64,000 nt of DNA from Gammaproteobacteria bacterium (GCA_028817405.1 JAPPPS010000105.1:6757-70756), one strand, 5' to 3'; shown: positions 11,571 through 33,730, counted from the stretch's first letter. Notes: generated by a model from the sequence alone, not told the origin. A program made the numbers and translations.

Positions 11571-13373
11571 ATGCGCACCCATTTAAGCGGCCAATTGCGC
11601 CGCGCCGACATCGGCCAGCGCGTCTCGCTGGCCGGCTGGGTGTTGAACCGCCGCGACCACGGCGGGGTGATTTTCATCGACTTGCGCGACCGCAGCGGCG
11701 TGGTGCAGGTGGTCGCGGACCCGGACGCGCCGGGGCCGTTTGCGGTGGCCGACAAGGCGCGCGCCGAGTTCGTGCTGCGCGTGGAAGGCGCGGTGCGCGC
11801 GCGGCCGGACGGCACCGTCAACCCCGACTTGCCGAGCGGCGACATCGAGGTGGCGGCGCAAACCATCGAGTTGCTGAACCGCGCCGAGCCGCTGCCGTTT
11901 CAAATCGACGACGAGGATTTGAGCGAGGCGACGCGCCTGAAATACCGCTTCCTGGACCTGCGCCGCGCGCCGATGCAAACCGCGCTGCGCCTGCGCCACC
12001 GCGTGGTCAGCGCCATCCGCGGCTTCCTCGACGCGCGCGATTTTGTCGACATCGAAACGCCGGTTCTCACCCGCTCCACCCCCGAAGGCGCGCGCGATTA
12101 TTTGGTGCCGAGCCGCACCCATCCCGGCGCGTTTTTCGCGCTGCCGCAGTCGCCGCAGTTGTTCAAGCAACTCCTGATGGTCGGCGGCTTCGAGCGCTAT
12201 TACCAAATCGCGCGCTGCTTCCGCGACGAAGACTTGCGCGCCGACCGCCAGCCGGAATTCACCCAGTTGGATGTCGAGATGGCGTTCGTCGACGAGGCCG
12301 AAGTGATGGCGTTGATGGAGGAGATGCTGCGCGAGGTTTTTGAACTCGCGGCCGGCGTCGAGTTGCCTGCGCCGTTGCCGCGCATGACTTGCGCCGAGGC
12401 GCTGGCGCGATACGGCAGCGACCGCCCGGACTTGCGCGTGGATTTGGAATTGACCGAGTTGACCGACTTGATGACGACGGTGGAGTTCAAGGTGTTCTCG
12501 GGCCCGGCCAGCGACCCGACCGGGCGCGTGGCGGCGTTGCGCGTGCCGGGCGGCGGGGCTGACGGTGGCGACGGTGGCGCCGGCATCTCGCGCGCGCAAA
12601 TCGACCACTACACCGAATTCGTCGGCCGCTTCGGCGCCAAGGGCTTGGCGTATATCAAAGTGGGCGACGCATCGGCCGGGCGCGACGGCTTGCAATCGCC
12701 GATTCTGAAATTCCTGCCGGACCAAGTGCTGGCGCAAATCCTCGAGCGCAGCGGCGCGGCCAACGGCGATTTAATCTTCTTCGGCGCGGACAAAGCGGCG
12801 GTGGTGAACGCCGCGCTCGGCGCGTTGCGGGTGGAAATCGGCCGCGACTTGTCGCTCGCCGCGCCGGGCTGGCGGCCGCTGTGGGTGGTGGACTTCCCGC
12901 TGTTGGCGTGGAACGAAGATGCGAAGCGGTTTGAAGCGCAGCACCACCCGTTCACCGCGCCGCGCGCGGCCGACATCGAGGACTTGGAAAGCGCGCCCGA
13001 GCGGGTACTGTCGCGCGCCTACGACTTGGTTTTGAACGGCGTGGAAATCGGCGGCGGCTCGATTCGCATCCACCAAGCCGAGTTGCAGCAGCGCGTCCTG
13101 GCAACGCTCGGCATCGACGCGGCGCAGGCGCGCGCGCAGTTCGGCTTTCTGCTCGACGCGCTGCAATACGGCGCGCCGCCGCACGGCGGCATCGCTTTCG
13201 GCATCGACCGCATCGCCGCCATGTTGGCCGGCGCCGACTCCATCCGCGATGTCATCGCCTTCCCCAAAACCCAAAGCGCATCGTGCCTGCTCACCGAAGC
13301 CCCGGGCGCCGTCGACGCCGGGCAATTGCGGGAGTTGGGGTTGCGGGCGGCGAAAACGCGGACCGGGAAATGA
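11571..13373 (+). CDS. aspS: aspartate--tRNA ligase
   Basis: 600 aa. OB-fold N-terminus '[22 protein letters not shown]', '[18 protein letters not shown]' and the 'GGGSIRIH' class II motif 3 region. Confidence 0.97.
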
Positions 13374-14632
13374 ATACAATGGCGCGCAAACCTGTCCCCA
13401 AAAACAAACTGTATGTCGGCGACAATTTGGATGTGATGCACGGCATGAATAGTTGCACGGTGGATTTGATTTATCTCGACCCGCCGTTTAATTCCAAGCG
13501 CATGTATCGCGCCCCCATCGGCAGTTCGGCGGACAAAAAGGCCGCAAAGAAAGGCCGACAAGTCGGCTTCCACGACATTTGGGTGTGGGAGAAGGATGTC
13601 GACATTCGACTGCTGTCTTTTTACGAGAGTCATCCCGACTTGTTCACCTACATCGATTTGGTGGGCAAGATGAACGGCGCGTCAATGAAAACCTATTTGA
13701 CTTTTATGGCGCAGCGGTTGATTGAAATGCACCGCATTCTTAAGGACACCGGCAGCGTCTATTTGCACTGCGACCCTTATGCCAGTCACTATCTGAAACT
13801 TTTGATGGACGAGATTTTCGGCAAGCACAATTTTCTCAACGAAATGATTTGGTACTACACCAACGCGTCCCGCGGCAAAAAGAAACTGGCAAATTCCCAT
13901 GATGTGATTTTCTGGTATTGCAAAAACAACGCTCAATACACTTTCAACCGGGACCGCATCCTGCAGGAATTCGCCAGCGGCATGACCGAGTGGCGGTACA
14001 GCAAAGGCGGGCAGGCCGGGCAAAAAATGCCGAAAGGGAAAACCCCCGACGATGTGTTCATCTTGCCGTCGCTGAACGCGATGTCAAAAGAACGCACCGG
14101 TTACCCAACGCAAAAACCGCTGGCGTTGCTCGACCGCATTATTCAAGCGTCGAGCGTTGAGGGCGACATGGTGATGGACCCGTTCTGCGGCTGCGCGACC
14201 ACTTGCGTGTCGGCGCAAAATCACCACCGCAATTGGATTGGCATCGATTTGGAGGATGTGGCAATCGATTTGGTGGTTGACCGGCTGAGCGAAACCGACA
14301 ACGGTCAAACCACGATTCAGTTCAACGATTTCATCGCCAGCAAAACGCCGCCGGTGCGCACCGACCTTGAGACATTGACCTGGACCAAGAAACGCATTCA
14401 CGCGCACTGCTTCGACAAACAAAGCGGCCGTTGCAACGGCTGCAAGAAACCATTCGAGGCGTATCACTTGGAAATCGACCACATCTACCCTAAGTCGCTC
14501 GGCGGGGCGTGGCTGCTGGAAAACTTGCAACTGTTATGCGGCAACTGCAACCGCATCAAAGGCGACCGCCCGATGGAATACTTGCGCGCGCGACTGGCCG
14601 AACGCCGCGAACGGCAAAAAGCGGTTTTCTAA
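13370..14632 (+). CDS. DNA methyltransferase (beta-class, DPPF) fused to a C-terminal HNH nuclease domain
   Basis: Motif IV '[12 protein letters not shown]' and motif I '[12 protein letters not shown]'. C-terminal HNH: '[25 protein letters not shown]...[14 protein letters not shown]'. The ATG at 13370 overlaps the aspS TGA (ATGA); an alternative ATG lies at 13379. About 50% GC by eye. Confidence 0.85.
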
Positions 14633-26383: not shown

Positions 26384-27814
26384 CTACAAAAACAACCGCC
26401 GCACATCGGCGAACGCGCGCGCCAGATACGCGGCGAAGCGCGCCGCCGCCGCGCCGTCGATGGCGCGGTGGTCGTACGACAAATCCAGCGGCAGCATCAA
26501 GCGCGGTTGAAACTTCTCGCCGTCCCACACCGGCGTCATGCGCGCGCGGGTGATGCCGAGGATGGCGACTTCCGGGGCGTTGACAATCGGCGTGAACGCG
26601 GCCCCGCCGATGCCGCCGATGCTGGAGATGGTCATGCAGCCGCCGCGCATCTCCTCGGCTTTCAGCCGCCCGGCGCGCGCGCGTTCGCTCAACTCGGCCA
26701 TCTCCGCGGCCAACTCGAACAGCCGCTTGCGCTCCGCATCCCGGATGACCGGCACCACCAAGCCGTGCGGGGTGTCCACGGCGATGCCGATGTTGCAGTA
26801 TTTTTTGACGATGAGATGCGCGCCGTCGGGGTGCAATGAGGCGTTGAAAGCGGGGAACTCGGCAAGCGCGCGCGCCAGGATTTTCACCGCGAAGCCGAGC
26901 ACGGTGACGCGCACCCCGGCCTTCTCGGCCTCGCCTTTCAGCGACCGGCGGAACGCCTCCAAGTCGGTGATGTCGGCGTCCTCGTGGTGCGTGACATGCG
27001 GGATGTTGAGCCACGCGCGCTGCAAGTGCGGGCCGGACAACTTGGCGATGCGCGACAACTTCTGCAGTTCCACCGCGCCGAACTGGCTGAAATCGACTTC
27101 CGGAATCGGCGGAATGCCGCCGCCGGCCGGCCCCGGCCCCGGCGCGCCCGGCGCGCCCGGCGCGCCGCCGAGCGACTCCCGCACCCACGATTTAACATCG
27201 TCCTCGACGATGCGCCCTTTGCCGCCGCTGCCGTGAATCTGCGCCAGCGGCGCGCCCAATTCGCGGGCGAAACGGCGCACCCCCGGGCTGGCATGCGGCG
27301 GCGCGACCCCGGCGCGCTCGACCGGCGGCGGTAGCGTCGGCGGCGGACGGTGGGAATCGGCGGACGATTTTTCCGGCGACGGTTGCGGTGACGGTGCCGC
27401 CGCCGACGGTGCTGGCGTCGATGCGGCATCGGCGGTCGGCAGTGATTCCGCCGCCGGCGATTCGGGTTGCGCCGGCGGCTGCGACGGTTGCGGCGACGGT
27501 GCCGCCGTGTCCTCAGCCGGCGCGGCCCCGGCATCGGTCGTGTCCTCAGCTGGCGCGGCCCCGGCATCGGCCGGCCCCGCCCCCTCCGCCAACACCGCCA
27601 CCGGCGTCCCCTGCGCCACCATTTCCCCGACCGCCACGCGCAACTCGGTGATGACGCCGGCGCACGGCGCGGGAATATCCATGGTCGCTTTGTCGCTTTC
27701 CAGCGTGACCAGCGGGTCTTCCGCGGCCACCGTCTGCCCGGCGCTGACCAGCACCTCGATGACTTCGACTGCGTCGAAATCACCGATGTCCGGCACTGTT
27801 ATTTCGGTCGGCAT
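26384..27814 (-). CDS. aceF: pyruvate dehydrogenase E2, dihydrolipoyllysine acetyltransferase (single lipoyl domain)
   Basis: Lipoyl site 'LESDKATMDIPAP', Ala/Pro linkers, an E3-binding domain and the catalytic 'DHRAIDGA' motif. Confidence 0.95.
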   Translation of the reverse strand: MPTEITVPDIGDFDAVEVIEVLVSAGQTVAAEDPLVTLESDKATMDIPAPCAGVITELRVAVGEMVAQGTPVAVLAEGAGPADAGAAPAEDTTDAGAAPAEDTAAPSPQPSQPPAQPESPAAESLPTADAASTPAPSAAAPSPQPSPEKSSADSHRPPPTLPPPVERAGVAPPHASPGVRRFARELGAPLAQIHGSGGKGRIVEDDVKSWVRESLGGAPGAPGAPGPGPAGGGIPPIPEVDFSQFGAVELQKLSRIAKLSGPHLQRAWLNIPHVTHHEDADITDLEAFRRSLKGEAEKAGVRVTVLGFAVKILARALAEFPAFNASLHPDGAHLIVKKYCNIGIAVDTPHGLVVPVIRDAERKRLFELAAEMAELSERARAGRLKAEEMRGGCMTISSIGGIGGAAFTPIVNAPEVAILGITRARMTPVWDGEKFQPRLMLPLDLSYDHRAIDGAAAARFAAYLARAFADVRRLFL

Positions 27815-27856
27815 GATATTGAACTTGCGGATTGTTAAAAATGCGTTTCGGCCATT

Positions 27857-29020
27857 CTACAACAATTTTTTCAGCAGTCCATATTGGTCAGCGTTCGCAT
27901 CGCTTGCATTAACGATGAATAGTCCAAACCCGTTCTTGTCGGCCTCGGCGACAATTTCCGAAATGAAAGTCCGGTCGGCGGCGCCGGCGTTGTTGTCGGC
28001 CAAGAATTGATTAATCTCGGCGTCGCTCATCGCGCTGTGCAAACTCCCCCGCACAACATCCGAAGTCAATCCAACGGCGGTTCGGTGCGGCATGCGTTTG
28101 CCGTTTATCATCAGCGTTTTAATGTTGCAAAACAGCGCTGATTTAATAAACGCGTCTTTGATGTCGATGCGCGACGGCAACCATTTATTTCGGGAGTGTT
28201 TTTTCTCAATCAAGAACACATGGCCAGACACAACGGTGCATTCATCGGCGGTCCAGTTATACAAACCGCCAATCAGGTTTTTCATGGTGACCGTGGCTTT
28301 GCGCGCCACGGTTTTCTCCTTGGGCTGGTCGGTTAAGCGCTCGCGGTTTTGCGCGTTTTCCGCCAACGCGCGCGACAATTGTTTAAATTTTGCGACATCG
28401 TCGGCGATGATTTGGATTCGCTTTTTAATGCCGCCTTCCCCGTGCAGGCGCACCCCGGTACGACGGGCAATATTACGATAGGAATCCAAAGTTAATCGGG
28501 CGATTTCGGACAATTGGTCCATCTGCAACAAATTCCAGTGCAAAGCGCTGGAATGATAATTGCTTAACTCACAAATTTTCTTGTGCACATGTTGGTAGTC
28601 CATGACTTGTTTGGTGATTTTATTTTTACGCGTCTGCCCGGGGCGCGTCGTTTTTTCCGCTTCCACATAATAGCAGGGGATTACATAAACATTCAGCACG
28701 CTCATCAGCGACACCGTGTCCCATTGCAAAAAATCACGGTCGCCGTCCGCGCCTTCATCTTTGCAGAACGGGATGAGAGTGACGCGGTTTTTCATGCGCA
28801 GCGTGTCGTAGACGCGCGCATAAGGAAAGGTGCGCGTCCTTTTAGGGGACAACCATTGGCTGACGGCAAATTTATTGCCGTTGCAATCAAGCAGAAACGC
28901 GCCTTTTGACTTCAGATTGCCCGCAAGCAAGTCGCCCGCCGTATATGATTCCAGTTCGACCGGAATGCGAGGTTCATATGTGACCTCTTGGAGTTCGGCA
29001 AAAATATTGACAAAATTCAT
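27857..29020 (-). CDS. putative restriction endonuclease (unassigned family; candidate PD-(D/E)xK site in the C-terminal half)
   Basis: 387 aa in low-GC sequence. It is the last gene of the M-M-R cassette, 9 nt after the Dam-like gene. Candidate catalytic motif 'WTADECTVVSGHVFLIEKKHS' (D259...E272-x-K274; nt about 28199-28246). I recognised no other family signature. Confidence 0.55.
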   Translation of the reverse strand: MNFVNIFAELQEVTYEPRIPVELESYTAGDLLAGNLKSKGAFLLDCNGNKFAVSQWLSPKRTRTFPYARVYDTLRMKNRVTLIPFCKDEGADGDRDFLQWDTVSLMSVLNVYVIPCYYVEAEKTTRPGQTRKNKITKQVMDYQHVHKKICELSNYHSSALHWNLLQMDQLSEIARLTLDSYRNIARRTGVRLHGEGGIKKRIQIIADDVAKFKQLSRALAENAQNRERLTDQPKEKTVARKATVTMKNLIGGLYNWTADECTVVSGHVFLIEKKHSRNKWLPSRIDIKDAFIKSALFCNIKTLMINGKRMPHRTAVGLTSDVVRGSLHSAMSDAEINQFLADNNAGAADRTFISEIVAEADKNGFGLFIVNASDANADQYGLLKKLL

Positions 29021-29029
29021 ATCGACCTC

Positions 29030-29884
29030 CTATGCGCTTGCAGGCGTTTGGTCCGCCTTTGTCGCATAGTCCCGACTCATGATGAGAACTTCGTTGGAAA
29101 CTTTGCTCGCATTCATGCCGTACGTCCATGTCGGCGTCTTAAACGGATAGCCGTTGTACAGTTCGCGCACCGTCTCGCAGTCGTTATACGACAGTAGCCA
29201 GTTGTCGTGTTGAGACAGCAGTTTGGCGAGGCCTTCATGGTCAAAATCCTGGTGATGGTCGCCGCGCGTGCCGTATAGTTTGGATGCGATGCAGTACGGC
29301 GGGTCCAGGTACAAAAAATCGGCGCGGTGGCGGGGAATGGATTCGCTGAAGTCGGCTTTGGCGACCTGCAGGTTCTGCAACTTAAAATCGCCCAGTCTGT
29401 TGATGCATGCGACGGTAAAACGCGGATGCCCTGGCGACATGCCCCCGGACAAAGTGGTGCCGGAAAAAGAGCAGCGGTTGAGGGCGAAGAACGCGGCCGC
29501 CGATTCGACGGGGTCGGCGATGTCGGAATGCCGTTTCTGCAGGGCGTAAAAGGCGTCCTTTTTCATCGGATAGTATCGCCGCACGGTGTCTGCCAAACCG
29601 GCCGCGTCTTCCAACAGCGTCCGCCAAAAATTAACCAGAGGTTGGAAGGCGTCGTAAGCGAAAACTTCAACGCCGCGCGCGGCCAGCGCCAACTCGACCG
29701 AGCCGCCGCCGATAAACGGCGAGCAGAGTCGCTCAATGCCGGGCGGCAACGCATCGAGAATGCAGTTGACGGCGCGAGATTTGCCGCCCGGATAACGCAA
29801 CGGCGATTTGGCTGTCGCGCGTTCCTGTTCGCCCCATGCAGGCGGCAGCATGGACGATTGTTTAAGCGGGGCGACGCTGTTCAT
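29030..29884 (-). CDS. Dam-like (D12-class, alpha) N6-adenine DNA methyltransferase
   Basis: 'PLRYPGGKSR', motif I 'SPFIGGGSVEL' and motif IV 'FLYLDPPY'. ATG at 29884, with 29851 as an alternative. The ORF-track N-terminal extension to 30058 overlaps the upstream gene and is rejected. Confidence 0.88.
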   Translation of the reverse strand: MNSVAPLKQSSMLPPAWGEQERATAKSPLRYPGGKSRAVNCILDALPPGIERLCSPFIGGGSVELALAARGVEVFAYDAFQPLVNFWRTLLEDAAGLADTVRRYYPMKKDAFYALQKRHSDIADPVESAAAFFALNRCSFSGTTLSGGMSPGHPRFTVACINRLGDFKLQNLQVAKADFSESIPRHRADFLYLDPPYCIASKLYGTRGDHHQDFDHEGLAKLLSQHDNWLLSYNDCETVRELYNGYPFKTPTWTYGMNASKVSNEVLIMSRDYATKADQTPASA

Positions 29885-31025
29885 CTTGTTGTCCGGTTGA
29901 CGGTTTTGTTTGGCCGGCGTGGTTCGCGCAGGAAATGATTTTTGCGGCGTAATCGATGTATTCTTTTTCGGTTTCCATGCCGATATGCCGGCGTCCAAGT
30001 TTTTCCGCCGCCAGATTGGTAACCCCGCTGCCGGCGAAGATATCCAAAACAACGTCATTCATGTAGGAATAATAACGGATGACGCGGCTGGCCAGTTCTT
30101 CAGGGAACGGGCATGGGTGGATATTTTCGCGCGGCGCCACCGGGCGAATATTCCACACATTCTTGCTCTGCTCTTGATAACCGGTCAAGTCCATCCGGTT
30201 CGCGCGCTTTTCAGCCGCCGTTCGGTCATGGTAGATGTTGTTTTTGGATTTTTCACCGGCCGGTTTTTGGAAGACGAAAACATACTCCACGGATAAACTC
30301 GGGTAGTAGTAGCCGGGATAAGGGTGTTGCATGAGAACGCCGCTGCGCTTGTCTTTGACAATGCCCTTTTCCCAGACAATATCTTCCTTGAACTGCCAGC
30401 CCAGTTCCTCCATCCAACAGACAAAATGAAACGGCAACGCCATGCGTTTTCCGCCCCAGGCCACCGGAGAAATGTTGACTACATTGTGTCCGCCGGGTTT
30501 GAGCACGCGATACAACTCTTTGAATCGGTCCACCAGGAACACTTTGTAAAATTGATATGATTGCTCTTTGCGCTCCCAATAGCGCACCTCGCCGCCGAGT
30601 TTTTTAATATGGTCGGCGTAGTTGATGGCGTTGTGGTAAGGCGGCGAAGTGAACGCCAGTATGATGCTGTTGTCGGCAAGCGTTTTTAGCCCGTCCAAAC
30701 AATCGCCGTGGATAAACTCCCCGCGCCCCGCCGAATACGTCTTCAGTTTTTCCCGGGTGGTTCTGAATCGCCCGCCCAACTCCAGCGCGGAAATGATTTG
30801 TAACGCCTTGTTTTTGCCGACTCCGTTAAATTTTGTCAAATCTCCCACGGTAACTTTCGTACCCAGGTTGGCGCGCAGATAATCCACCAACTCCCGGCTC
30901 AAGTTTTTGATGCTGTTATTTTTGGCCCCGGTGCCGAGCAAAACTGAAATCAACTCCTCCGTTGATAACTCGGACGGCGGATTTTCCAGCAGTTTCTCGC
31001 GGGGCTGTTGGGATGCGGAGGTCAT
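29862..31025 (-). CDS. beta-class DNA methyltransferase (SPPY, possibly N4-cytosine) with a RadC-N-terminal-like HhH domain
   Basis: The N-terminal 90 aa, 'PREKLLENPPSELSTEELISVLLGTGAKNNSIKNLSRELV...FNGVGKNKALQIISALELGGRF', resemble the RadC/UPF0758 N-terminal HhH region. Then come motif IV 'LAFTSPPYHNAINY' and motif I 'VVLDIFAGSGVT'. ATG at 31025; the ORF track uses a TTG at 31034. Confidence 0.85.
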   Translation of the reverse strand: MTSASQQPREKLLENPPSELSTEELISVLLGTGAKNNSIKNLSRELVDYLRANLGTKVTVGDLTKFNGVGKNKALQIISALELGGRFRTTREKLKTYSAGRGEFIHGDCLDGLKTLADNSIILAFTSPPYHNAINYADHIKKLGGEVRYWERKEQSYQFYKVFLVDRFKELYRVLKPGGHNVVNISPVAWGGKRMALPFHFVCWMEELGWQFKEDIVWEKGIVKDKRSGVLMQHPYPGYYYPSLSVEYVFVFQKPAGEKSKNNIYHDRTAAEKRANRMDLTGYQEQSKNVWNIRPVAPRENIHPCPFPEELASRVIRYYSYMNDVVLDIFAGSGVTNLAAEKLGRRHIGMETEKEYIDYAAKIISCANHAGQTKPSTGQQDEQRRPA

Positions 31026-31048
31026 GTTATCCAATGCAGTAGATGCGT

Positions 31049-33730
31049 TTATACCGTAACCGGATTTGGTTTATCCGGATTAATGCCGTATTTTTCCAGC
31101 GCCGTGCGGCAGGCGTCGGCCGGGAGCAGTTCGTCTTCGACCAATGCGTGCAGCGCTTGCGCCGTGACATGCGCGCTGTCGACTTCGAAGAATTTGCGCA
31201 GTTGCGCGCGGGTGTCGGAGCGGCCGAAGCCGTCGGTGCCGAGCACATAATACTTGCGCGGCACGAACGCGCGAATCTGCTCCGCATACAAACGGATGTA
31301 GTCGGTGGCGGCGATGACCGGGCCGGCGGCGTTTTCCAAACACATGCCGACGAACGATTGGCGCGGCGCAACATCTTTCGCGCCTTGATGCCGCGCGTTG
31401 TGACGGGCCGCGGCCTGGCCGTCGCGCGCCAGTTCGTTAAAACTGGTGACGCTCCAGATGTCCGAGGTGACTTGATATTCCGCGTCCAACATCTCGGCCG
31501 CGGCCTCCACTTCGCGCAAAATCGCGCCGCCGCCGAGCAGAGTGACTTTCAGACGGTTGTCCGGCTTGCCGACGCTGCGCAGCAGATACATGCCGCGCAC
31601 GATGCCTTCCTCGGCGCCGGCCGGCATGGCCGGATGCGGGTAGTTTTCGTTCATCACCGTGATGTAGTAGTAGATGCTCTCCTGCTCTTGGTACATGCGC
31701 CGCAAGCCGTCGTGAATGATGACCGCCAACTCGTAACCGTACGCCGGGTCGTATGAGACGCAGTTCGGCACCGTGGACGCTAACACTAAACTGTGACCGT
31801 CCTGATGCTGCAAGCCTTCGCCGGCCAAGGTGGTGCGCCCGGCGGTGCCGCCTAAGATAAACCCGCGCGCGCGGCTGTCGCCGGCCGCCCAGCACAAATC
31901 GCCGATGCGCTGGAAGCCGAACATGGAATACAAAATGTAGAACGGAATCGCGCACACATCGTGGTTGCTGTACGCGGTGGCCGCGGCAATCCATGACGAC
32001 ATCGCGCCGGCCTCGTTGATGCCTTCCTGCAGCACTTGGCCTTCGCGGCTCTCACGGTAGAACATCAACTGGTCGGCGTCTTCCGGCTCATAAAGTTGGC
32101 CCTTCGGCGAGTAGATGCCGAGTTGCCGGAACATGCCTTCCATGCCGAAAGTGCGCGACTCGTCCGGGATAATCGGCACGATGTGGCGCTTCAAATTCGG
32201 CTCGCGCACCAGCGCCGAGAGGATGCGCACGAACGCCATGGTGGTGGAGATGTTGCGCTTGCCGCTGCCGTCGAGTTGCGACTGGAACAGCGACAGCGGC
32301 GGTACTTCGAACGGCGGTTTGCTGAAAGTCCGGCGCGCCGGCAGAAAGCCGCCCAAGGCGCGCCGGCGCTCCAGCAAATACTGCGTCTCCGGCGAATCTT
32401 CCGGCGGACGGTAGAACGGCGCGCGCGCCACCTCCTCGTCGGTCAGCGGAATGTTGAACCGGTCGCGGAACGCCAACATCGCGTCCTCGCCCATTTTTTT
32501 CTGCTGGTGGGTGGTGTTCTGGCCCTCGCCGGCCTCGCCCATGCCGTAGCCCTTGACGGTCTTGGCGAGAATCGCGGTCGGCTGGCCGCGGTGCTGCACC
32601 GCGGCCGCGTAGGCTGCGTAAATTTTATGCGGGTCATGGCCGCCGCGGTTCAGCCGCCACACATCGGCGTCGGTCATGTTGGAGACCATCTCGCGCAGTT
32701 CCGGGTATTTGCCGAAGAACTTCTCGCGCACGAAGCCGCCGTCCTTGGCTTTGAACGCCTGGTATTCGCCGTCCACCGCTTCTTCCATGCGCTGCTTCAG
32801 CAAGCCCTTGTCGTCGCGCATGAGCAGCGGGTCCCAGTAGGAACCCCAGATGACTTTGATGACATTCCAGCCGGCGCCGCGGAACTCGCTCTCCAATTCT
32901 TGGATGATTTTGCCGTTGCCGCGCACCGGGCCGTCCAAGCGTTGCAGGTTGCAGTTGACCACGAAAATCAGGTTGTCGAGGTTCTCGCGCCCGGCCAGCG
33001 ACAGCGCGCCGATGGACTCCGGCTCGTCCATCTCGCCGTCGCCGGGGAACGCCCACACCTTGCGGTCGCCGGCGTCCACCAGGCCGCGGTGGTGCAGGTA
33101 TTTCATAAACCGCGCCTGGTAAATCGCCATGAGCGGCCCCAAGCCCATGGACACGGTCGGGAACTGCCAGAAGTCCGGCATCAGCCACGGATGCGGGTAC
33201 GACGAGACGCCGTCGCCGCCGACCTCCTGGCGGAAGTTGCGCAGATGCTCCTTGTTCAACCGCCGCTCCAGATACGCGCGCGCGTAGATGCCCGGCGCGG
33301 AGTGGCCCTGGATGAACAGCATGTCGCCGAGTTGCGCGTCGTTCGGCGCGCGCCAGAAGTGGTTGAAGCCGACATCGTACAGGGTCGCGGCCGAGGCGAA
33401 ACTGGCGATGTGGCCGCCCAACTCGCTGGAGACGCGGTTGGCGCGCACCACCATGGCCAGCGCGTTCCAGCGAATCAGCGCGCGGATGCGCCGTTCCAGC
33501 GCGTGGTCGCCGTCGCTGCGCTGCTCCAGATGCACCGGAATGGTGTTCAGATACGCGGTGTTGGCGCGGTACGGAATGTGCGCGCCGGAGCGCCGCGCGT
33601 GGTCGATGAGTTGCTCGATGAGGTAGTGCGCGCGCGCGTGGCCCTCGCGCTCGATGACCGCGCTCAGCGCGTCGAGCCATTCGCCGGTCTCGACGGCATC
33701 GACATCGGGCGGCGGCTGGTTTTCGGACAC
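31049..33730 (-). CDS. aceE: pyruvate dehydrogenase E1 component (homodimeric type)
   Basis: 'DVDAVETGEWLDALSAVIEREG' N-terminus like E. coli AceE, ThDP motif 'GDGEMDEPES' and length near 890 aa. GTG start at 33730 is preferred over the ORF-track start at 33850. Confidence 0.95.
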   Translation of the reverse strand: MSENQPPPDVDAVETGEWLDALSAVIEREGHARAHYLIEQLIDHARRSGAHIPYRANTAYLNTIPVHLEQRSDGDHALERRIRALIRWNALAMVVRANRVSSELGGHIASFASAATLYDVGFNHFWRAPNDAQLGDMLFIQGHSAPGIYARAYLERRLNKEHLRNFRQEVGGDGVSSYPHPWLMPDFWQFPTVSMGLGPLMAIYQARFMKYLHHRGLVDAGDRKVWAFPGDGEMDEPESIGALSLAGRENLDNLIFVVNCNLQRLDGPVRGNGKIIQELESEFRGAGWNVIKVIWGSYWDPLLMRDDKGLLKQRMEEAVDGEYQAFKAKDGGFVREKFFGKYPELREMVSNMTDADVWRLNRGGHDPHKIYAAYAAAVQHRGQPTAILAKTVKGYGMGEAGEGQNTTHQQKKMGEDAMLAFRDRFNIPLTDEEVARAPFYRPPEDSPETQYLLERRRALGGFLPARRTFSKPPFEVPPLSLFQSQLDGSGKRNISTTMAFVRILSALVREPNLKRHIVPIIPDESRTFGMEGMFRQLGIYSPKGQLYEPEDADQLMFYRESREGQVLQEGINEAGAMSSWIAAATAYSNHDVCAIPFYILYSMFGFQRIGDLCWAAGDSRARGFILGGTAGRTTLAGEGLQHQDGHSLVLASTVPNCVSYDPAYGYELAVIIHDGLRRMYQEQESIYYYITVMNENYPHPAMPAGAEEGIVRGMYLLRSVGKPDNRLKVTLLGGGAILREVEAAAEMLDAEYQVTSDIWSVTSFNELARDGQAAARHNARHQGAKDVAPRQSFVGMCLENAAGPVIAATDYIRLYAEQIRAFVPRKYYVLGTDGFGRSDTRAQLRKFFEVDSAHVTAQALHALVEDELLPADACRTALEKYGINPDKPNPVTV

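Follow-up and report, generated by a model that had tools for sequence, protein, structure and literature searches.

HaeIII recognises GGCC, and the DpnII system of Streptococcus pneumoniae, encoded by dpnM, dpnA and dpnB, is directed at GATC, with N6-methyladenine (m6A) as the modified base and two methyltransferases for the one palindrome. Here we describe a cassette of three genes that lies between aceE and aceF, the genes for the E1 and E2 components of pyruvate dehydrogenase, in a 64,000-nucleotide (nt) stretch of DNA from a gammaproteobacterium (GCA_028817405.1, JAPPPS010000105.1:6757-70756; the whole stretch is referred to as the window). The cassette likely constitutes a Type II restriction-modification (R-M) unit, composed of a beta-class DNA methyltransferase (M1), an alpha-class DNA methyltransferase (M2) and a predicted restriction endonuclease (R). 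Systems of this kind are already known, but to find one placed within an essential operon is unusual. CbeI of Caldicellulosiruptor bescii is a Type IIP system that targets GGCC with N4-methylcytosine (m4C) as the modification, and the structure of its methyltransferase is available (PDB 7M6B; PMC3425538, PMC3679861); at the cbeI locus, M.CbeI is encoded 45 bp downstream of a gene about 1 kb in length (PMC3679861). M.CbeI belongs to the alpha class, has been annotated as a D12 adenine methylase and carries a DPPY motif, and its product was determined by experiment to be m4C in GGCC (PMC8616854, PMC3425538). The archaeal GGCC systems SuaI/M.SuaI and PhoI/M.PhoI employ beta-class m4C methyltransferases (PMC5809426, PMC3425538), and only 570 methylated GGCC sites were reported genome-wide in the SuaI host (PMC5809426). 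R-M units have also been described as mobile elements, including a Type II unit in an operon-like structure (Furuta, Abe and Kobayashi 2010, PMC2853133).

The cassette resembles CbeI in that M2 is homologous to M.CbeI over the full length (alpha-class, D12 fold, DPPY) and in that carriers of the R family avoid GGCC. R is likened to CbeI by size and order only, given a gene of about 1–1.2 kb and an R-then-methyltransferase order in many R relatives. The differences are that the order here is M-M-R, that an extra beta-class methyltransferase with a RadC-type N-terminal domain is present, that M2 is only 34% identical to M.CbeI, and that the host represented by the window does not avoid GGCC. SuaI and PhoI resemble the cassette in pairing a beta-class, SPPY-type methyltransferase with a GGCC enzyme (in the cassette, a predicted one), but M1 is only 30–35% identical to the beta-class partners in related loci and has an additional N-terminal domain. 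With DpnII the cassette shares one alpha-class (D12) and one beta-class (N6_N4) methyltransferase beside a single nuclease, for one palindromic site; it differs in the nuclease family, R having no DpnII domain by Pfam, in gene order, and in that the DpnII site is GATC with m6A. An analogy to DpnII that had been drawn from the sequence in an earlier reading of this DNA (hereafter the original prediction) was therefore half right: two methyltransferases, most likely for one palindrome, are what we find, whereas R, with no Pfam match, is not a DpnII-family protein. As in the units surveyed by Furuta and colleagues, a Type II unit lies in an operon-like cluster with intact flanking genes and no linked integrase or transposase; in contrast to them, there is no long target duplication and there are no inverted repeats, only a doubtful 8-bp repeat, the target is the essential aceE-aceF pair, and the unit has persisted over a synonymous divergence (dS) of about 0.55–0.6.

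A compositionally foreign cassette between aceE and aceF

We consider it likely that the window holds a horizontally acquired M1-M2-R Type II R-M cassette in the aceE-aceF spacer, which would be expressed by read-through, would recognise GGCC and would carry two redundant m4C methyltransferases. Judged by their profile matches, both host genes are intact and unambiguous in identity: AceE matches TIGR00759 (1448 bits) along with Pfam PDH_E1_M, Transketolase_N and Transketolase_C, and its C-terminus aligns through to the AceE end of relatives, while AceF matches PF00364, PF02817 and PF00198, for its lipoyl, E3-binding and catalytic domains, as well as TIGR01348 (E 3e-160). The cassette between them is compositionally foreign, with a GC content of 0.53 versus 0.66 for the remaining window and a GC content at third codon positions of 0.62–0.71 versus 0.85 in aceE and aceF; the GC of M2 is somewhat above that of M1 and R. 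In species representatives whose AceE is 63–78% identical, aceF directly follows aceE in 79 of 79, and close relatives (AceE 83–87% identical) have empty spacers of 4 nt (L181), 34 nt (L182) and 6 nt (L187; L numbers denote the contigs and loci used for comparison). The nearest named relatives are Candidatus Poriferihabitaceae, sponge symbionts in Arenicellales. The original prediction had placed a foreign R-M module inside the aceE-aceF unit, and the domain and profile matches, the low GC content and the empty junctions in the 79 species and three relatives all support it; the contrary outcome that it had allowed for, relatives that all carry the cassette with no empty site anywhere, was not observed.

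Eleven contigs encode an R protein identical to that of the window, and another six encode a 98% variant. All 14 contigs that we examined, from metagenomes of 14 different samples, have the arrangement aceE-M1-M2-R-aceF at 98–100% nucleotide identity, and the identical junctions in these contigs rule out an assembly chimera. Contig L015 is more distant, at 85% nucleotide identity, and has this arrangement too. When L015 is compared with the window, dS is 0.53 for aceE, 0.59 for M1, 0.56 for M2, 0.58 for R and 0.66 for aceF; since the values are equal for cassette and host genes, the cassette was present in the common ancestor with L015 and has been inherited vertically. The ratio of nonsynonymous to synonymous divergence (dN/dS) is 0.08 for M1, 0.15 for M2 and 0.18 for R (aceE: 0.15; aceF: 0.29), indicating that all three cassette genes are under purifying selection and hence functional. 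Because L015 clusters with the window (85%) rather than with L180–L182 (about 77–79%), the insertion dates to after the split from the latter. GATC (11 expected), AGCT and CTAG are all missing from the cassette, a word avoidance that matches that of the host and fits long residence. In the scenario we propose, the cassette would have been acquired horizontally and inserted in the short aceE-aceF spacer in the ancestor of this and the sister lineage, both of them sponge-associated gammaproteobacteria.

A different low-GC gene occupies the aceE-aceF spacer of L180, the closest complete relative (AceE 87% identical). It encodes a 439-amino-acid (aa) protein in which an alginate-lyase domain is accompanied by a hydrophobic stretch at the N-terminus (L180:9710-11029), is separated from its neighbours by 15-nt gaps on either side, and has a GC content of 0.50 versus 0.62–0.65 in these neighbours. 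As this gene is unrelated to the cassette, the spacer has been hit at least twice independently.

Nothing we found marks the cassette as a transposon, an integron cassette or an integrative island. Integrase and transposase domains are absent from the genes neighbouring the cassette, a tRNA scan and an Rfam search of the whole 64-kb window gave no match, and neither direct or inverted repeats of at least 14 nt bracketing the cassette nor terminal inverted repeats were detected; the lack of an integrase, transposase, tRNA and long terminal repeat noted in the original prediction is thereby borne out. A single candidate for an insertion scar was seen in the window, the 8-bp direct repeat AAACGCAT, present at both borders (shuffle P about 0.018) and degenerate in L015. 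Although it could be a target-site duplication, we do not claim it as such, because a P of about 0.02 is accompanied by eight copies of the 8-mer in the window and by a lack of flanking repeats at L016, L017 and L180.

Table 1. Positions of the aceE-aceF region features, counted from the first nucleotide of the window
Feature	Coordinates	Strand	Remarks
aceE, pyruvate dehydrogenase E1 component	31049..33730	-	893 aa as called on identical contigs
Left copy of 8-bp direct repeat AAACGCAT	31043..31050	-	overlaps last two bases of aceE stop codon
Left junction, aceE stop to M1 start	31026..31048	-	23-nt spacer, read from sequence
M1, beta-class N4/N6 DNA methyltransferase	29862..31025	-	387 aa; ATG 31025, stop ending 29862
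M2, alpha-class (D12) DNA methyltransferase	29030..29884	-	284 aa; ATG 29884, stop ending 29030
GGAGG Shine-Dalgarno	29026..29030	-	5 nt before R start codon, overlapping M2 stop codon; read from sequence
R, predicted Type II restriction endonuclease	27857..29020	-	387 aa; 9 nt after M2
Sigma-70-like pair TGGACT-16-TAGAAT	27854..27881	-	R 3' end, 40 nt upstream of aceF ATG; candidate aceF promoter
Right copy of 8-bp direct repeat AAACGCAT	27841..27848	-	8 nt past R stop codon
Right junction, R stop to aceF start	27815..27856	-	42-nt spacer, read from sequence
aceF, dihydrolipoyllysine acetyltransferase E2 component	26384..27814	-	476 aa, ATG 27814, one lipoyl domain

The five genes aceE, M1, M2, R and aceF are co-oriented on the minus strand of positions 26384–33730 (Table 1). 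The borders that had been proposed (aceE stop at 31049, aceF ATG at 27814), the three co-oriented genes with their spacings of 23, -23 (or +10), 9 and 42 nt, and the GC content of two 60-nt lines (0.48 at 28081 and 0.78 at 26401) were all reproduced. A longer open reading frame (ORF) for aceE, starting with TTG, extends to 33850, and an alternative ATG for M2 at 29851 would replace its 23-nt overlap with M1 by a gap of 10 nt. The left spacer is 98% conserved in L009 and still recognisable in L015; the aceF-proximal part of the right spacer resembles the empty aceE-aceF spacer of L182. The surrounding genes are tctCBA, an aminotransferase gene, aceE, aceF, recO, era and rnc. In four close relatives (L180–L182 and L187) aceF is followed by lpd, the gene for E3; in the window it is directly followed by a 34-aa ORF and recO on the opposite strand, and an lpd homologue is found nowhere in the 64 kb. 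The inter-domain linker of aceF (window 27100–27700) has a GC content of 0.75–0.77 and is repetitive, with a 33-nt tandem duplication at 27506–27571, and its length varies among strains (AceF of 456 aa in L009 versus 476 aa).

The predicted nuclease and the two methyltransferases

R matches the PADLOC REase_II profile PDLC03572 (E 4.6e-75) over residues 30–304. An alignment of 49 R homologues, down to 42% identity, has 53 invariant columns, among them a group of basic residues in the N-terminal half (K60, R61, R63 and R69) and the residues D259, E272 and K274, arranged as D259...E272-x-K274 with EKK at residues 272–274. In an AlphaFold2 model of R (predicted local distance difference test, pLDDT, of 92), D259 and E272-K274 are located on consecutive beta strands that are followed by a helix, and the top Foldseek matches, although weak (E 0.005–0.4), are enriched in PD-(D/E)xK nucleases (DUF4297, McrC, Exo5 and Holliday-junction resolvase), which is suggestive of a PD-(D/E)xK-like fold. 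R would accordingly be laid out as a conserved N-terminal predicted DNA-recognition region and a C-terminal predicted core of the PD-(D/E)xK type built around D259, E272 and K274. The assignment of R as a nuclease is well supported by the profile, the motif and the gene context, a methyltransferase gene adjoining R in every one of 70 or more related loci. The 387-aa protein with a D...ExK motif that had been noted from the sequence is thus confirmed, and its PADLOC match is to a profile for Type II restriction enzymes.

Other searches with R returned little: Pfam (E 0.01 or below) and NCBIfam profiles gave no match, PDB sequences nothing relevant (best E 1.3), and tblastn against 72,556 plasmids no match, while a homologue search started from the low-GC member L144 yielded only 'hypothetical protein' entries and no named Caldicellulosiruptor or Sulfolobus protein. 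The R family comprises more than 4000 members, all of which are publicly labelled 'hypothetical protein', and has neither a Pfam nor an NCBIfam model. The Pfam search that the original prediction had suggested placed M1 (PF01555) and M2 (PF02086) in families and left R without one.

M1 combines an N6_N4_Mtase domain (PF01555, E 2.9e-41) with an N-terminal RadC-type UPF0758_N helix-hairpin-helix domain (PF20582, E 7.8e-15). The motifs SPPY at residue 127 and FAGSG at residue 330 are in beta-class order; the PADLOC MTase_II profile matches with E 7.6e-55, and the best PDB relative is 2zie. The UPF0758_N domain covers M1 residues 6–77 (window about 30795–31010). Its fusion to a methyltransferase is seen in the sponge-symbiont subclade and some others (L016, L017, L101, L105 and L183–L186), and since many otherwise close R partners (60–66% identical) are missing the domain, we regard it as an optional module.

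M2 matches PF02086 (E 1.1e-29) and PADLOC MTase_II (E 3e-49), with FIGG at residue 57 and DPPY at residue 194 in alpha-class order; the Pfam matches and the motif order of both proteins agree with the earlier assignments of an SPPY beta-class and a D12 DPPY methyltransferase. Both carry a motif I, for SAM binding, as well as a catalytic motif IV. The closest solved relative of M2 is M.CbeI (7M6B; E 2.5e-32 by tblastn, M2 residues 26–263 aligned with 3–251), whereas DpnM (E 1.7e-8) and Escherichia coli Dam (about 1e-4) are more distant, and a test for M.CbeI/DmtB homology identified M2 as a full-length homologue. The original prediction had expected one m6A and one m4C motif, which is doubtful, since M.CbeI is an m4C enzyme with DPPY (PMC3425538) and the same motif in M2 thus does not imply m6A. 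More generally, DPPY in a D12-class methyltransferase is not to be taken automatically as the sign of an m6A enzyme.

Expression, recognition site and alternative readings

Most likely, transcription that starts at the pyruvate dehydrogenase promoter would read through the cassette, giving the order aceE, M1, M2, R, aceF. Co-transcription of the five genes is consistent with their shared strand, their tight or overlapping spacing and the lack of terminator-like sites on the coding strand between R and aceF. Within the cassette itself we recognise no promoter, terminator or controller gene. Given the gene order, the methyltransferases would be made ahead of the nuclease; the overlap of M1 and M2 may couple their translation, a separate, strong ribosome-binding site (GGAGG) would serve R, and aceF would be re-initiated 42 nt after R. 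Given the aceE-aceF gaps of 4–6 nt in empty relatives, the insertion would have replaced tight coupling of the two genes by a 3.2-kb detour. Once expressed, R would restrict unmethylated incoming DNA, and the cassette would be hard to lose, both because loss of methylation would be lethal as long as R remains (post-segregational killing) and because only clean excision would preserve aceF expression.

Alternatively, the operon could be split, such that the cassette and aceF are transcribed apart from aceE, from promoters within the 3' ends of aceE and R. The sigma-70-like pair that ends 40 nt upstream of the aceF ATG (9 of 12 matches) speaks for this arrangement. However, three such sites occur in the scanned region versus 2.0 expected by chance, the -35 hexamer of the pair is not conserved in L015, in which the R-aceF spacer is 17 nt, and no promoter-like site was reported in the scan of the 23-nt gap between aceE and M1. 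We therefore hold a split operon to be unlikely and prefer read-through.

The methyltransferase partners of R relatives, examined at 82 loci, fall into three arrangements: a beta-class enzyme upstream only (for example L017, L186 and L101–L111), an alpha-class enzyme downstream only (for example L117, L135, L138 and L142–L144), or both. A beta-class enzyme precedes R in roughly half of the related loci, several of which are of low GC content, and in about 30 loci R is followed by a methyltransferase that is 46–51% identical to M.CbeI. As a methyltransferase of either class can be the sole partner of R, the site is most likely a palindrome protected by both enzymes. This bears on a system of the Type IIS kind, in which, as in MboII, each methyltransferase would protect one strand of an asymmetric site, one as m6A and the other as m4C. 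The two classes with their different motifs IV (SPPY and DPPY) and the lack of GGCC depletion in the host of the window would both fit such a system, an analogy that the original prediction had offered; yet across the 82 loci one methyltransferase is enough, which fits a palindromic and not an asymmetric site, and DPPY also occurs in the m4C enzyme M.CbeI (PMC3425538). We consider an asymmetric site very unlikely.

To arrive at the palindrome itself, tetramer counts in the host flanks of 36 carriers of the R family (486 kb in total) were compared with a second-order Markov expectation. GGCC is the most depleted of the 256 tetramers in these flanks (pooled observed/expected 0.24). Its median observed/expected ratio is 0.17 in carriers versus 0.84 in 76 control loci (Mann-Whitney p = 8.6e-14), and the ratio is below 0.5 in 31 of 35 carriers versus 5 of 76 controls. 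The residual GGCC sites in carriers cover all NGGCCN contexts, which points to a 4-bp site. Taken with the gene content, these counts suggest that the R family most likely recognises GGCC and that M1, with SPPY, and M2, which resembles M.CbeI, are most likely both N4-cytosine methyltransferases for the same site and hence redundant.

Several observations weigh against extending this picture to the cassette in the window. GGCC is not depleted in its host (680 observed versus 733 expected; 0.92), and depletion is moderate in the hosts of the closest cassette relatives (0.2–0.64). The match of M2 to M.CbeI argues for homology, but 34% identity does not settle the base and site specificity. Foldseek searches of the PDB with full-length R and with a model of its C-terminal domain (pLDDT 93) gave no significant neighbour, and the weak promoter-like site at the end of R could provide aceF with a promoter of its own. 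Within the cassettes, GGCC is mildly depleted in the window (12 versus 20 expected) and not depleted in L015 (23 versus 23.6); the related genomes L180 (0.15) and L182 (0.27) are GGCC-depleted. High GC content as the cause of the missing depletion was considered and rejected, carriers with a GC content of 0.54–0.58 still being at 0.04–0.26. Either the specificity of this subclade may differ, or GGCC avoidance may have been relaxed in this lineage, and on balance we lean towards GGCC as the site of this particular enzyme.

The missing GGCC avoidance of the host, together with a cassette that lacks a regulator and is confined to a metabolic operon, would also suit a domesticated remnant, in which the methyltransferases serve epigenetic or housekeeping roles, the nuclease is inactive and the position was fixed neutrally. 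This is slightly less credible than an asymmetric site, as R is intact in every contig, its dN/dS is 0.18 over a dS of 0.58, and it keeps 53 of the 53 family-invariant residues, including the predicted catalytic triad. Least credible of all is a GATC system of the DpnII/MboI type with Dam-like and DpnA-like methyltransferases and a nuclease: the alpha plus beta methyltransferase plus R architecture resembles dpnM-dpnA-dpnB and GATC is scarce in the host (2 versus 245 expected, counted in the window excluding 27857–31025) and in the cassette (0 versus 11), but R matches neither the DpnII endonuclease family nor any Pfam family, M2 is much closer to M.CbeI than to DpnM or Dam, the GGCC depletion of carriers is stronger and more consistent than their GATC depletion (0.24 versus 0.46), and GATC is low in relatives regardless of the cassette.

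Related cassettes and restriction in sponge-symbiont genomes

Homologous cassettes, with R 53–60% identical, are present at other loci in related symbionts. In L016 (Candidatus Spongiihabitans), the cassette is inside a liv-type ABC transporter operon; in L183/L184, it follows ccoNOQP by 34 nt, in the genome that has the empty aceE-aceF spacer of L182; in L186, it lies 37 nt after nuoJKL and before ilvBNC; in L017, it comes after a polyprenyl synthase gene; and in L185, where M2 is truncated, it adjoins an IS1595 transposase. These are separate acquisitions, since, in comparisons of the same genomes, R is much less conserved than AceE (53% versus 83%). Same-orientation placement directly 3' of a housekeeping gene is a recurring pattern, of which six cases are no proof. 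What distinguishes the cassette in the window is that both methyltransferase classes are present in one unit, that M1 has a RadC-type N-terminal domain, that the site is exactly between the pyruvate dehydrogenase E1 and E2 genes, that the unit has persisted through the divergence of two lineages, and that the same spacer was independently used by another foreign gene.

R-M-type genes are dense in these symbiont genomes. Elsewhere in the window (13370–14632, plus strand) is a second low-GC gene (0.49–0.55), whose product is a fusion of an N6_N4 DNA methyltransferase (DPPF) with an HNH nuclease domain at the C-terminus. The start codon of this gene shares bases with the aspS stop codon (ATG and TGA, as ATGA), so that it is joined to a housekeeping gene much like the aceE-aceF cassette. 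The L017 genome, which has an M1-R version of the cassette, also has, all within 20 kb, another N6_N4 methyltransferase adjacent to a gene for an HNH nuclease (L017:16417-17865) and a third methyltransferase fragment (L017:657-1199). Besides GATC, other 4-bp palindromes are nearly absent from the host part of the window, namely AGCT (3 versus 74.5 expected), ACGT (7 versus 107) and CTAG (1 versus 16), and L180 and L182 avoid GATC and AGCT as the window host does.

A broader reading, which we put forward tentatively and think rather unlikely, is that the sponge-symbiont clade repeatedly captures promoterless low-GC defence genes at the 3' ends or internal spacers of strongly expressed housekeeping operons, without transposases or repeats. 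The aceE-aceF cassette, the L180 spacer gene, the cassettes at the liv, ccoNOQP and nuoJKL loci and the aspS-linked methyltransferase-HNH gene would be its examples. If true, methyltransferases locked into the pyruvate dehydrogenase operon would keep GGCC permanently methylated and leave no selection against it, which would account for this host alone having lost the GGCC avoidance of its relatives and of other carriers.

The avoidance of GATC, AGCT, ACGT and CTAG by the host, along with low-GC R-M genes on housekeeping genes, suggests strong restriction pressure on sponge-symbiont genomes. For the R family, the analysis proposes a function and a testable specificity, GGCC, for more than 4000 proteins that have so far been 'hypothetical'. 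The cassette itself likely represents a natural example of an R-M unit that separates two neighbouring genes in an essential metabolic operon and has been kept through the divergence of two lineages, and it bears on how 'selfish' defence modules may stabilise themselves and couple to host transcription.

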